58,014 bases of DNA from Bdellovibrionales bacterium (GCA_040380025.1 JBEIJY010000013.1:1-58014); one strand, 5' to 3'; counted from the first letter of the stretch, positions 24,435-28,208 are shown. Notes: a model not told the origin generated them from the letters alone. Numbers and translations are program-made.

Positions 24435-25468
24435 GGTCGGGCCCCGGGGATGAAGCGAACCGCATCTTCCGCGCTCAATCGTTTCATGCAGGCATACGGA
24501 TCAAAAAACCGGCGACACACCCTTCCGTCTTTCGAACAAGGAGAGCACCCCATTCCATACGAAATCGCGCGACTCTTCGCGCGGATCGGACCGAATCCGA
24601 GCTCCGGTTGGGTGGGGCCAAAGACCACGTGGGCCGGACATCCGACCGACTCGGCAAGATGCGACAGCCCGGTATCGCAACCCAGATAAAACGCGGAGTG
24701 TTTCAGTAACACCGCGGTCTTCAAAAAATTGGGTTCACGGAGGGCCTCCCGGAACGGGAGATTCGCCGCGGTCAGAAGCTCCTTCAGTCGTGCGCAGGCG
24801 GGATCGCGCTCCCGACCGAGAATCAGGGGCTCGAGACCGCGGTCGCGAAGAAGGTGGATGGCCTCGAAAAACCGATCGGCTCCCCACTCTTTCGTGACCC
24901 AGCGCGAGGCCGGCATCACACAAAAATAGCCGCCTTCGGTGAGTCCGTACTCCCGAAGGACCGTCGAATCCTCGAGCCCGGAGGCCTCCAGGATTGGAAG
25001 ATACGAGGGAGGAAGAAGAGCATCCCTCGAACGGGTGCCGGCGATTTTCTTCGCCATGCGACCGAAGCGGATCCAGTAGGGCGTCGGAAAAAAGGAGGAA
25101 AATGCGTGCTTCCGGAGCGCAAGAAGCGTCAAGGTCCGGATCCGTTCTTTTGAGATCCGGAGGAGCCGCCCGGAGCCTGCGAATCGAAAATAAAAAAATG
25201 CGAGTCCGGTGCGAAGCGTTCGATGAAGATCAACCCTGTGATCATACTGTTCCCGCGACAGCGCCCGGATCAGTTGCCACCATCCGCGAAGCCCCTTGGC
25301 GCGATCGAATGCAATCAGACGTCTGATTTTCGGATGTCCCTTCAGGACAAATTCGAATTCCCGCGCGATCACCCAATCCACCTGCGCCGATGCCGGGAGG
25401 TTCTCGAGAAACGCGGTCGAAAGAAGAACATCTCCCATGCTGCTCATGCGGAACACGAGAATTCTCAT
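24431..25468 (-). CDS. Glycosyltransferase family 9 (LPS heptosyltransferase-like)
   Basis: ILVFRMSSMGDVLL, TKEW, DTGLSHLA, FGPT. Confidence 0.9.
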   Translation of the reverse strand: MRILVFRMSSMGDVLLSTAFLENLPASAQVDWVIAREFEFVLKGHPKIRRLIAFDRAKGLRGWWQLIRALSREQYDHRVDLHRTLRTGLAFFYFRFAGSGRLLRISKERIRTLTLLALRKHAFSSFFPTPYWIRFGRMAKKIAGTRSRDALLPPSYLPILEASGLEDSTVLREYGLTEGGYFCVMPASRWVTKEWGADRFFEAIHLLRDRGLEPLILGRERDPACARLKELLTAANLPFREALREPNFLKTAVLLKHSAFYLGCDTGLSHLAESVGCPAHVVFGPTQPELGFGPIRAKSRAISYGMGCSPCSKDGRVCRRFFDPYACMKRLSAEDAVRFIPGARP

Positions 25469-26574
25469 CGGCTTGGCGCCTTCCGGAGAATCCGAACTCC
25501 GCCTTCCTTGCTCTGGGCATGAATGACGGGAGATGCTCGTTTTCCGACGATTCCCTCGACTCTCCCCGGAGATTTCGGTCCGTATCGATTCCGGTTGCGG
25601 ACTCCTGCAAGATCATACGGAAACTGCACGACCACCTCTCCTCGCAGACTCATCAAATCCAGAAGGCCTTCGAATTGGGGCACGAGCGAAATCTGGATGT
25701 CGCCTTTCTCGGTATCCACCCGAACCGGTCCCTTGATTCCATCGAAATCCAGCACCACCTGTCCGCTCCGGGTCTGAATGTCCGCACTTCCGTCCATCTG
25801 ATTCAAAAAGGCCCCTCCGTCCTCGCTTTGAAACGCCACCTGCCCCCGAAACCGCGTGAGATTCAATCTTCCGGTTGTGGTACGCGCATTGAGACTTCCG
25901 CTTCCCCGCTCCACGCGGATCTCTCCCGAGGATCCGTCAATCGAGAGATCCACCTCTTCGATATCCGAGAGGAGAAGAGGTTTCGAACCGACCGAAATCC
26001 GGCCCTGGATCCTGGACTCCCGGACCTCGGTGTCGCACTCCACGCATTGGACAAGAAAATTCTTCCCTCCGGTCAGCTTCGAGAACCGGAGACGATTCCC
26101 CTTCCCGCTCACCGTCACTCCGCCTCGCCATTGTTCGAGTTTCAGCTCGCGACCCTCGCCCAGCACCAGTGTCAGATCAGTCTGATAAGGTGCTTTGATC
26201 TCGAGATCGACTTCCACCGCGCTCCGGGAGCGATTCCGCATTTTTGAAACAAGATCCGCACCCTGGGAGTGGCCCACGCGGATCTCATGCCGATCCGGTC
26301 CTTCGAACGTGACCAAAGAGATTTTCTTGAACTCCTCTTCGGCCCGGAGAGGGGTCTCGGCGACCAATCGTTTTTTCAGGACTACTTTGATCCGGTCCTG
26401 GACCCAGCCCTGGACCGAGACGCTTCCGAGGTTGTGCTGAAGATACAAGGGCAATGATCGACGCAACGGCACCACCCGCTCCTCTTCGTGCTCGATCAAT
26501 GAGGACGACCAGACGGAGGGGGAGACCGCCAAGCTCAAGAAAACCAAAATCAAGGAAAGAGCCTGATCCTTCAT
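25465..26574 (-). CDS. Exported beta-strand repeat (DUF4097/adhesin-like) protein
   Basis: Signal peptide; recurring SSGEI/TTGRL/RSGQV/EKGDI/LRGEV beta-repeat motif. Confidence 0.7.
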   Translation of the reverse strand: MKDQALSLILVFLSLAVSPSVWSSSLIEHEEERVVPLRRSLPLYLQHNLGSVSVQGWVQDRIKVVLKKRLVAETPLRAEEEFKKISLVTFEGPDRHEIRVGHSQGADLVSKMRNRSRSAVEVDLEIKAPYQTDLTLVLGEGRELKLEQWRGGVTVSGKGNRLRFSKLTGGKNFLVQCVECDTEVRESRIQGRISVGSKPLLLSDIEEVDLSIDGSSGEIRVERGSGSLNARTTTGRLNLTRFRGQVAFQSEDGGAFLNQMDGSADIQTRSGQVVLDFDGIKGPVRVDTEKGDIQISLVPQFEGLLDLMSLRGEVVVQFPYDLAGVRNRNRYGPKSPGRVEGIVGKRASPVIHAQSKEGGVRILRKAPSR

Positions 26575-26632
26575 GGGTATCTTCTGGAACTTACAGTGAA
26601 ATCAGGAACTTTCCCAATGAATCCGAAATCTC

Positions 26633-26660
26633 TTGCGCTAGTAATGCAATGCGCTAGAAT
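26633..26660 (+). promoter_or_regulatory. Candidate sigma-70 promoter for the aptamer RNA
   Basis: TTGCGC-N16-TAGAAT; contains direct repeat TGCGCTAG x2. Confidence 0.4.
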
Positions 26661-26777
26661 CATAATTGTGAGCAATTCTTAACGGAGGGCAAACAAAGAC
26701 AACCGTTTTCGATGAAATTTTTGAGCCCCGAGGGATCGGGACTCATGAAGAGGCAGGAGAACCCAGTTCCCCCCTTT

Positions 26778-26872
26778 GAAAAAGGCAACCCGATGGAAAC
26801 ATCGGAGACGCAAAACCTACGGGACTAACGGTCTTTCAACCCCTGAGACCCAAGTCGGCCGGGCTGCCAAAG
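26778..26872 (+). ncRNA. Cyclic di-GMP-I (GEMM) riboswitch aptamer
   Basis: AAAGGCAACCCGATG-GAAA-CATCGGAGACGCAAAACCTACGGGACTAA...AGTCGGCCGGGCTGCCAA matches GEMM-I hallmarks (GGCAA, GNRA-capped P2, GACGCAAA, GGGxCTAA, GCCGGGYTGCC). Confidence 0.88.
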
Positions 26873-26966
26873 GTGAAGAAGCCTTCCAAAGCTTCAAAGG
26901 GGGTTCCGGAACCCATTGGTCTGCTCACCCCTGCGGACCCTCATCCGGCCCCCTCTTCAGCAACGG

Positions 26967-27010
26967 AGGCGCGAGTGGTGTGAGAGCCCACTCGCGCCTT
27001 TATTGTTTCT
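26967..27010 (+). terminator. Intrinsic terminator downstream of aptamer
   Basis: AGGCGCGAGTGG-N9-CCACTCGCGCCT (12-bp perfect stem) + TTATTGTTTCT. Confidence 0.8.
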
Positions 27011-27038
27011 GGCCTGTGGGATAGAATGGGCTTCTTTT

Positions 27039-27713
27039 ATGGCTTTTGAAGGCTTGCTCGTCACCGAAATCTTCCACTCTCTGCAAGGCGAAACATCCCT
27101 CTCAGGAGTCCCCTTTGTGTTTGTCCGGCTGACCGGATGCAATCTCCGCTGCGTGTACTGCGACTCCGCCTATAGCTTCAAGGGGGGAACCCGAATGAGC
27201 GCGGAGCGGATTCTGGAAGAGGTGAGGCAGTACCAAACCCCGCACGTTCTTCTGACCGGCGGCGAGCCGCTGTTGCAGAGGGGCTCCCTGCCCTTGATTC
27301 AAAGAATGAAACGCGAGGGATTTCGCGTTTCGATCGAAACCCACGGCGAAGTTCCGATCGAGGCCTTCGCTCCGCATGCCCGGATCATCCTTGACATCAA
27401 AACCCCGGGTTCGGGGTATCAGCGCGGGGGATACAAAAAGAATCTGGAATTTCTAAAGCCCGAAGACGAGGTCAAGTTCGTGATCACCTCGCGCGAGGAT
27501 TATGATTGGGCGAAACAACTGCTCGCTGAAAACCCGATCCGGGCACGTGAGGTGCTTTTCTCGCCCGCCGTTCGGGCGGCGGGATCTCCGGGAACTTTCC
27601 AGGGCGTGAATCCCGCCGATCTTGCGCGCTGGATCCTCGAAGACCGACTGCCGGTCCGCTTCCAGATCCAACTCCACAAGTACCTTTGGGGAGCCGACAC
27701 CAAGGGCGTCTGA
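27039..27713 (+). CDS. queE: 7-carboxy-7-deazaguanine synthase (radical SAM)
   Basis: EIFHSLQGE, FVRLTGCNLRCVYCDS, LTGGEP, QIQLHKYLW. Confidence 0.88.
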   Translation: MAFEGLLVTEIFHSLQGETSLSGVPFVFVRLTGCNLRCVYCDSAYSFKGGTRMSAERILEEVRQYQTPHVLLTGGEPLLQRGSLPLIQRMKREGFRVSIETHGEVPIEAFAPHARIILDIKTPGSGYQRGGYKKNLEFLKPEDEVKFVITSREDYDWAKQLLAENPIRAREVLFSPAVRAAGSPGTFQGVNPADLARWILEDRLPVRFQIQLHKYLWGADTKGV

Positions 27714-27734: not shown

Positions 27735-28208
27735 TCAGAGCCCCTCGGGCATCAGGCCTTTTTTCAGGGCTTCCTCTGCTTCCTTCAACTGCCGACGATG
27801 CGATGAATTCAGCGCGTCTCGTGCCTCTTTTTGTTTGTGCTTGAACTCCGTCCACTCCACTTTCTCGTGGTAATCGAAATCATCTTTGCGTTTCACAAAA
27901 TCTTGCACATACGCACGGCGTTCCGGGCCGCTGGAATGGGATTCGAAATACTGGCGGCGAGCTTTCCGTTCTTTTTCGCGCCAGGCCTTGCGGCGCTCGT
28001 TCTGGAGGCGGACCAGCTCACGCCGGAGCTGTTTTTCTTGCTGGTCGAATTCTCTCTGATCTTTTTCGATCGTTTGCCGGATGCCTTTCAGAATCCGGTT
28101 CCGTTCCTTCTCCGGAACCGAGACCGGAACCTGGACGGGAACCGGAGCGGGAAGGTCATCGGCCATCGAGGCGGGAAGCACGAGCAAAAAGAAAATCAGA
28201 GAAACCAT
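27735..28208 (-). CDS. Secreted coiled-coil hypothetical protein
   Basis: Signal peptide, highly charged helical body. Confidence 0.7.
   Translation of the reverse strand: MVSLIFFLLVLPASMADDLPAPVPVQVPVSVPEKERNRILKGIRQTIEKDQREFDQQEKQLRRELVRLQNERRKAWREKERKARRQYFESHSSGPERRAYVQDFVKRKDDFDYHEKVEWTEFKHKQKEARDALNSSHRRQLKEAEEALKKGLMPEGL

Follow-up and report, generated by a model that had tools for sequence, protein, structure and literature searches.

A candidate merRNA-type RNA gene with a c-di-GMP-I aptamer and two predicted competing folds upstream of queE in a Bdellovibrionales bacterium

The candidate RNA gene and its aptamer

The window studied here is a stretch of 58,014 nucleotides (nt) of DNA from a Bdellovibrionales bacterium (GCA_040380025.1, JBEIJY010000013.1:1-58014), and all its coordinates are counted from its first letter. 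On the plus strand, upstream of a queE-like gene, it carries an aptamer of the class I cyclic di-GMP (c-di-GMP-I) family, set within a longer segment that has a promoter-like motif and a terminator of its own. We propose that the RNA made from this segment probably works alone, as a relative of the merRNA described in Bdellovibrio bacteriovorus, and does not switch the neighbouring gene, and that its aptamer would compete with a long rod-like structure for one shared strand.

An Rfam covariance-model scan placed the aptamer (RF01051) at 26774-26871 on the plus strand, where the sequence matched the full model (1-87) and scored 62.5 bits, well over the family's gathering score (35). The aptamer that a first-pass annotation had proposed from the sequence is thus confirmed. 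No other c-di-GMP-I aptamer was found in this genome of 2.35 Mb, which contains three GGDEF-domain genes and can therefore make c-di-GMP. The window aptamer fits the consensus at AAAGGCAA and GCUGCC. By analogy with the structure of the Vc2 aptamer, the presumed ligand contacts would be the G before GGCAA and the C in UGCC.

The RNA would be about 340 nt long (26667-27010, plus strand); these ends are inferred, the start being placed about 7 nt past the -10 box and the end at the last letter of the T tract. The promoter motif (26633-26660) consists of a -35-like TTGCGC (26633-26638), a 16-nt spacer and TGCGCTAGAAT (26650-26660), which ends in the -10 box TAGAAT (26655-26660). Among 89 loci from the window's order, 48 have the pattern TTGNNN-N13-15-[TC]GNTANNNT on the 5' side of the aptamer, as against 4 of 205 segments of comparison inside queE. 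At the other end lies an intrinsic terminator (26965-27010), with two 11-bp arms, GGCGCGAGTGG (26968-26978) and CCACTCGCGCC (26988-26998), extended by 26965-26967 and followed by TTTATTGTTTCT, the T tract being at 26999-27010. This terminator, also noticed in the first pass, begins 96 nt 3' of the aptamer and was called as well by a consensus scan.

Between promoter and terminator the RNA is organized as a series of nested elements, all on the plus strand. A predicted 5' hairpin (26723-26744, GAGCCCCG-AGGGAUC-GGGACUC) with GGA in its loop is followed by GAAGAGG (R1, 26747-26753), the 5' strand of an outer stem A, whose 3' strand is CCUCUUC (Y2, 26952-26958; CCTCTTC in the DNA). The segment CCCCCUUUGAA (Y1, 26770-26780) stands at the 5' edge of the aptamer; it forms, along its full length, the 5' strand of a second enclosing stem, B, and, at 26773-26778, that of the aptamer closing helix P1. 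Its two possible partners are the P1 3' strand CAAAGG (R2, 26868-26873, an RNAalifold prediction) and the more distal UUCAAAGGGGG (R3, 26893-26903), which repeats CAAAGG and has an alternative partner of its own in a C run before 26952. A small insert hairpin, AAGGU-GAAGAA-GCCUU (26870-26885), is predicted between P1 and stem B, and is either absent in relatives or replaced there by other hairpins. A second predicted hairpin (26904-26951), between stems B and A, is specific to the genus, and several genus members largely lack it.

Direct reading of the DNA verified the stem coordinates of the first pass, CCCCCTTTGAA at 26770-26780 facing TTCAAAGGGGG at 26893-26903, and 26747-26753 facing 26952-26958. 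The segment 26660-27010 folded with a minimum energy of -136.4 kcal/mol (z = -5.0; none of 100 shuffles was as good), in a structure that includes both outer stems and the terminator. Two further inner pairings that had been suggested, GTTCC with GGAAC and GCAGG with CCTGC, were not confirmed, as the genus alignment did not show them to be conserved; in the minimum-energy fold GTTCC pairs locally and not with GGAAC.

The view that no credible open reading frame (ORF) lies inside the RNA was borne out, since the longest ORFs, compared in 17 RNAs from the genus, have 11-93 codons and agree neither in reading frame nor in where they start; coding potential was rejected for want of an ORF conserved across these 17 RNAs. 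A Shine-Dalgarno-like AAAGGAGG stands directly 3' of the aptamer in most relatives, and as the sign of a translated ORF it was also rejected, its distance to a start codon not being constant when judged by eye.

Some features of the promoter are recorded apart from this argument. Its spacer is conserved across the order (TAACGCnnTGCGyTAnnnT), and the word TGCGCTAG occurs twice in the window promoter (26634-26641 and 26650-26657); the repeat and the conserved spacer may mark an operator or a special class of promoter. The word TGYGNTANNNT, tried as a signature of such a class, occurred twice in the window, which is the chance expectation, and is uninformative.

Conservation of the helices and two exclusive folds

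We collected 90 distinct loci from the window's order, from which 66 RNAs were aligned and 64 full-length RNAs were folded; unless another set is named, the pairing frequencies below refer to the former set and the folding results to the latter. From 5' to 3', the alignment contains a constant order of nearly invariant segments: the 5' hairpin, GAAGAGG, a small hairpin, CCCCCUUUGAA, the aptamer, CAAAGG, a variable hairpin, UUUCAAAGGGGGG, a hairpin, CCUCUUC and the terminator. Both outer stems, whose fate in relatives had been named as a check on the first-pass proposal, were conserved. Stem A was paired in 97.8% of the alignment cells and stem B in 94.8%, and the TCTTC of the Y2 strand was invariant in all 66 RNAs. 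Covariation was strong in the two aptamer hairpins (helices 4-7), which were 97.5-100% paired with 15 of 18 pairs changed on both sides; the same was true of 10 of 10 pairs in the terminator helix (90.4% paired) and 5 of 5 in the 5' hairpin. When the partners were shifted by one column as a control, pairing over the whole structure fell to 55-57%.

Applied to this alignment, RNAalifold chose P1 (CCUUUG, 26773-26778, with the CAAAGG directly behind the aptamer) and not the rod made of stems A and B. P1 was paired in 97.0% of cells and showed ten compensatory cells. The program also paired the distal G run of R3 with the C run ahead of CCUCUUC, and each of the six pairs of this R3:Y2 helix could be formed in 62-66 of the 66 RNAs. 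The sequences thus accommodate this pair of helices as well as they do the rod. Stem B and P1 draw on one and the same 5' strand, so that an RNA can form either the rod or the ligand-binding fold, but not both.

In thermodynamic folding without ligand, stem A had a median probability of 0.85 and stem B one of 0.55, while the median for P1 was 0.00. The energy gap in favour of the rod over the P1 state was 7.0 kcal/mol for the window RNA, and its median across the folding set was 1.95 kcal/mol. The terminator was predicted in every one of these RNAs, with a median pairing probability of 0.97. When P1 was forced in the window RNA, the distal G run was predicted to fold onto the C run, GAAGAGG became unpaired and the terminator was unaltered. 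The first pass had seen the rod as a scaffold holding the aptamer at its tip. This part of its interpretation has to be revised, given that the inner stem takes the 5' strand of P1, and the rod is probably not a passive holder. The competition that these models predict between rod and closed aptamer is a new structural point. The aptamer class has a reported affinity of about 1 nM, according to the merRNA paper (PMC3627812); on a rough reckoning, energy gaps taken at face value would lower the apparent affinity by one to five orders of magnitude.

Neighbouring genes and the weighing of explanations

The queE-like gene (27039-27713, plus strand) was identified as a radical SAM gene by Pfam (Radical_SAM, 57.1 bits), its best NCBIfam match being TIGR04349 QueE at 256.1 bits against a cut-off of 300. 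As the first pass had pointed out, it has a -10-like box of its own, TAGAAT, behind the terminator (27022-27027, plus strand), 11 nt before the ATG, and relatives likewise show a promoter-like box at leaderless spacing. The word TGNTA, often within TGTGNTA, was present between terminator and queE in 49 of 71 loci, as against 15 of 349 control segments. The distance from the end of this box to the first in-frame start codon was 5-11 nt in 38 of 47 loci, and a Shine-Dalgarno-like tetramer preceded queE in only 3 of the 47. In extended -10 promoters, such a spacing from box to start is the geometry of a leaderless mRNA. On these motifs, queE is probably a separate transcription unit, and its mRNA is probably leaderless or nearly so, starting from its own extended -10 promoter. 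The queE upstream regions of four genomes from other families had no clear common promoter and were uninformative on this point.

On the other side of the RNA lies a divergent gene with the Pfam domain DUF4097 (25465-26574, minus strand), and homologues of it occupy the same position in 29 loci. Gene order is thus kept on both sides, which implies no special tie of the RNA to queE. We searched 15 aptamer-negative genomes of the order for queE and found two with the locus intact and the RNA missing, three in which a contig ends inside queE or the RNA, and ten in which the query used found no clear queE (no match in nine and a weak match in G087). In the two intact loci, G057 (L230 2173-2337) and G056 (L234 1135-1330), the region between the DUF4097 gene and queE lacks the RNA gene and retains a T run and a TGNTA box 9 nt before the queE start. 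Conversely, in three genomes of three families a tRNA-Cys(GCA) gene replaces queE directly after the RNA and its terminator, on the same strand (L153 1770-1845, L008 1250-1325 and L194 1373-1448), and in two further genomes a tRNA-Cys gene lies within 1.4 kb of the RNA. In other classes of the phylum, queE was near the RNA in none of 14 loci, and in all five genomes searched it was located elsewhere. Between queE and recJ the window also contains a 157-codon ORF (27735-28208, minus strand) with no Pfam or NCBIfam match.

The obvious alternative is an ordinary cis-acting c-di-GMP-I riboswitch of queE, in which an expression platform would choose between the terminator and a long-range antiterminator and the ligand would set read-through. 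The layout is the expected one, with a promoter, an aptamer, alternative helices, a terminator and then a gene, and in 72 of 85 loci, from at least ten families, the next gene on that strand is queE. A candidate antiterminator can even be drawn, in which the 5' hairpin would pair with the 5' arm of the terminator and so lengthen the rod: in many members of one family, f4, the 3' arm of this hairpin (CGGGCC) complements the terminator arm (GGCCCG), and when these RNAs were truncated ahead of the terminator's 3' arm, folding often predicted the f4 hairpin arm as the partner. However, over the 64 RNAs folded after this cut, the 5' arm of the terminator had no consistent partner, and the duplex energy between 5' hairpin and terminator arm carried no cognate signal (-9.7 kcal/mol for cognate and -9.5 kcal/mol for non-cognate pairs), better than shuffles at the 0.05 level or below in only 6 of 65 RNAs. 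The window duplex had -8.6 kcal/mol, against -7.2 +/- 2.5 kcal/mol for its shuffles, and the complementarity is absent in the window's genus. Lacking a conserved partner or a cognate signal, the f4 likeness (GGCCC/GGGCC) was rejected as a general antiterminator, and the first-pass impression that there is no obvious antiterminator held both in the truncated folds and in the energy comparison, neither of which revealed a conserved one. Furthermore, with queE at leaderless spacing from its own box and without a Shine-Dalgarno sequence, an RNA reading through into it would be poorly translated; according to a 2025 preprint, expression in B. bacteriovorus falls strongly when the ribosome-binding site is lost. 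The box of queE also occurs at some loci that lack the RNA, and elsewhere the RNA is followed by tRNA-Cys or a convergent gene. Taken together, we consider a cis riboswitch of queE unlikely.

Less likely still, in our judgement, is a plain high-affinity sponge, stand-alone as in the first-pass proposal, whose rod is a mere stabilizing scaffold, with stem B replacing P1 as a long closing helix and the ligand bound while the rod is intact. This would fit the dominance of stems A and B in the ligand-free ensemble and the stability of the whole RNA, and the first six pairs of stem B on the shared strand are identical to those of P1; merRNA itself has been proposed to be a c-di-GMP sponge (PMC3627812). 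What speaks against the scaffold is the proximal CAAAGG, which is kept and covaries with the shared strand, changes of length included, as seen in the ten compensatory cells of P1; its conservation would not be needed if stem B had replaced P1. Stem B moreover pairs the first A residues (26779-26780) of the junction that leads to the ligand pocket. It would also separate the closing helix from the last hairpin of the aptamer by an insert, which has 19 nt in the window and reaches about 50 nt in relatives. The two outputs could also be combined, in that a discrete and abundant RNA with a leaky terminator would feed the overlapping queE promoter or occlude it, without ligand-dependent antitermination. 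In many loci the T tract does pass without a break into the -10 box of queE, with the terminator lying where the -35 region of this box would be, and of the native promoters tested in B. bacteriovorus that of merRNA was the strongest, as reported in the 2025 preprint. Only this geometry speaks for such an arrangement, and the same queE box is present without the RNA gene in two genomes, so that we regard it as very improbable.

We therefore return to an independent RNA gene of the merRNA type, with a constitutive terminator, a rod competing with the ligand-bound fold, and a separate and probably leaderless queE, a combination that we moderately favour from the comparison of sequences. Its core, a discrete merRNA-like RNA and not an ordinary cis riboswitch, was already the opinion of the first pass and is the most likely explanation of a promoter of its own, a terminator in all relatives, no conserved antiterminator and a separate queE box; the queE loci without the RNA and the RNAs followed by tRNA-Cys are further evidence for it. 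According to this proposal, about 26667-27010 would be transcribed from the conserved promoter, and the terminator would form whatever the aptamer does. In the ligand-free state CCCCCUUUGAA would pair with the distal repeat UUCAAAGGGGG as stem B and GAAGAGG with CCUCUUC as stem A, and the resulting rod would block the closing helix P1. Binding of c-di-GMP, the presumed ligand, would favour P1, so that the distal repeat would be freed to fold onto the C run before CCUCUUC and GAAGAGG would be released. The RNA would thus take up c-di-GMP in bulk, as a buffer or sponge whose apparent affinity would be lowered and tuned by the competing rod, and may expose conserved single strands in a ligand-dependent manner. 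queE would be transcribed separately from the extended -10 promoter just past the terminator, as a leaderless or near-leaderless mRNA.

Several observations weigh against this interpretation. In the 72 loci mentioned above, out of 85 with enough sequence to tell, the same-strand queE motif is 150-578 nt away, which is the usual layout of a riboswitch, and mutually exclusive helices usually point to an expression platform; gene order is of little help in deciding, the DUF4097 side being conserved too. Compensatory cells are few in stem A (four GC-to-AU cells, all at one pair) and in stem B (three), whose support is mostly plain conservation, and the energy gaps between rod and P1 range from -15.7 to +11.3 kcal/mol, in part through alignment errors. 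A consensus promoter scan of 26400-27200 called neither the promoter of the RNA gene nor that of queE; the queE box of the window has no TG in register, and TGNTA is absent in 22 of the 71 loci. In f4 the T tract has only 3-5 T and merges with the queE promoter, so that read-through may be substantial and promoter occlusion is conceivable. As for expression, five RNA-library runs, of which four were examined, each matched about 4% of the sampled words, and cover of the RNA consisted only of short contigs of relatives (164-227 nt) on 26734-26950, which continue into unlike sequence, with none on the flanking genes. These contigs show neither level, ends nor strand, and so count neither for nor against a discrete RNA. 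Finally, the flanks of merRNA and the window RNA could not be aligned outside the aptamer and P1, and the published merRNA folds no better than its shuffles (z = -1.5, compared with -5.0 for the window RNA).

As a separate observation on the terminator, its apical loop is conserved in f4 (GCAYGAAWGC, alignment A1 columns 392-400), which is unusual for a plain terminator, and the outer stem is conserved in sequence there as well (GAGGCCCG/CGGGCCUC).

merRNA, distribution and significance

merRNA was described thirteen years ago as the most abundant non-ribosomal RNA of attack-phase Bdellovibrio. According to Karunker et al. (2013; PMC3627812), it is an RNA of 445 nt (1,073,741-1,074,185, minus strand) that carries a c-di-GMP riboswitch and whose level rises about 5000-fold in attack phase; the authors saw no conserved ORF following it and, beyond the Bdellovibrio lineage, no relatives. 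The single aptamer that we found in G164 (1073868-1073951, minus strand) falls inside these published coordinates. At the coordinates given in the same source for Bd1131, G164 has an ORF for a class IV aminotransferase on the opposite strand; this convergent gene comes next, so that merRNA has no gene behind it there.

The window RNA is the putative counterpart of merRNA, in position and in function, in another class of the phylum. Each contains the only c-di-GMP-I aptamer of its genome, in a non-coding unit of several hundred nt with its own promoter. By eye, the two also share a terminator some 100-130 nt behind the aptamer, the same P1 (CCUUUG/CAAAGG), an inserted hairpin that separates P1 from a helix further out, and a similar type of promoter (in merRNA CTTGAA, about 17 nt, GCTAnCCT). 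They differ in that merRNA has 445 nt, with a 234-nt 5' part that holds a mini-ORF, and is followed by the convergent aminotransferase gene instead of queE. merRNA also lacks the GAAGAGG/CCUCUUC rod, and its distal helix overlaps P1 by two bases only (by eye); homology of the flanks, and a rod in merRNA, were looked for and not found. In addition, massive attack-phase expression has been measured for merRNA. We found no account in the literature searched of conservation of merRNA beyond Bdellovibrio, of a link to queE, of competition between P1 and a rod, or, after its first description, of its mechanism.

The mini-ORF deserves a separate mention. In other families, RNAs of the merRNA type have such a frame of 12-15 codons, with a Shine-Dalgarno sequence before it and with ...DPPPK-stop, ...PPPE-stop or ...xPK-stop at its end. 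It lies 90-180 nt upstream of the aptamers in loci L160-L173, which are from other Bdellovibrionota classes (MSKRPMDWRLDPPPK is an example). A script found it in 9 of 14 other-class loci, inspection by eye in 11 of 14, and it occurs in none of 89 loci of the window's order. The accessible part of the merRNA paper (PMC3627812) contains no mention of a polyproline leader peptide before the aptamer.

Comparison with other aptamer RNAs leads in the same direction. With cis-acting c-di-GMP-I riboswitches of the Vc2 type (GEMM-I, RF01051, Vibrio cholerae), the window RNA shares the aptamer fold, the GAAA loop of the first hairpin, the G before GGCAA and the closing helix P1; in contrast to them, truncated folding and duplex energies detected no platform coupling P1 to the terminator, and the gene downstream lacks a ribosome-binding site and is preceded by a promoter-like box of its own. 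Metabolite aptamers also occur in non-coding RNAs whose output is not the gene behind them, such as EutX/Rli55, in which a B12 riboswitch controls a protein-sequestering RNA, and SreA, an S-adenosylmethionine (SAM) riboswitch acting as a small RNA. In those RNAs the aptamer sets the length of the transcript by termination, whereas the terminator of the window looks constitutive and the ligand would refold the full-length RNA.

Among relatives of the window genome, 38 of 41 contained the aptamer, with exactly one copy in 37 of these 38, and over the whole order one copy per genome was the count in 88 of 116 genomes. In the phylum, 57 of 151 genomes at least 98% complete had one, G164 among them, and presence followed families (37 of 37, 6 of 6, 7 of 17 and 0 of 67). 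Many aptamer matches lie 30-540 nt from a contig end, and the three nominally negative genomes mentioned above have a contig that stops inside queE or the RNA. Since contigs break at this locus, absence of the aptamer from assemblies is in part an artefact. Assemblies tend to break here (for example in G041, G045, G047, G051, G059, G060, G080, G094, G097 and G106, and in G053, G048 and G081), a likely cause being the conserved RNA core common to co-occurring relatives. A sequence-pattern scan of contigs, which was no census, gave 11 true members among the 80 loci of the matches listed, the others being chance matches; the true members among them were labelled Oligoflexia, Bdellovibrionales, Bacteriovoracaceae or Bacteriovorax. 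One genome, G022, is the only one of the order with three aptamers, and two of these (L150 and L151) read GAAAAAGCAAG where all others read GAAAAAGGCAAG. The variant A presumably sits at the ligand-contacting G, a position that we assume from Vc2, as in variants selective for cyclic GMP-AMP.

One c-di-GMP aptamer RNA per genome is thus a widespread trait of Bdellovibrionota. An uncultured order known from assemblies carries a compact and highly conserved version of it, in which a closing strand is common to the aptamer and to a competing rod. Such strand sharing suggests how an RNA of this kind could reversibly buffer c-di-GMP or report its level, rather than lock it away, and the order supplies many natural sequence variants. 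The locus is also a warning for annotation, as a gene that comes after an aptamer in the same orientation is not necessarily controlled by it; here queE appears to be leaderless, with its own promoter.

A more far-reaching version, which we regard as unlikely, would make the RNA a ligand-gated riboregulator and not a passive sponge. In this model c-di-GMP would open the rod and expose the nearly invariant GAAGAGG, and may also alter the presentation of the anti-Shine-Dalgarno-like CCUCUUC and of the GGA loops; these elements would then base-pair with mRNAs or retain a protein, for example CsrA. Protein sponges of the CsrB/RsmZ type carry several GGA motifs in hairpin loops. In the RNAs examined here, GGA stands in the loop region of the 5' hairpin in 46 of 64, the median number of GGA per RNA is 6, against 4.4 in shuffles, and a csrA gene is present. 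If this ligand-gated reading were true, a single abundant RNA would turn the level of c-di-GMP into a genome-wide translational programme in predatory bacteria.

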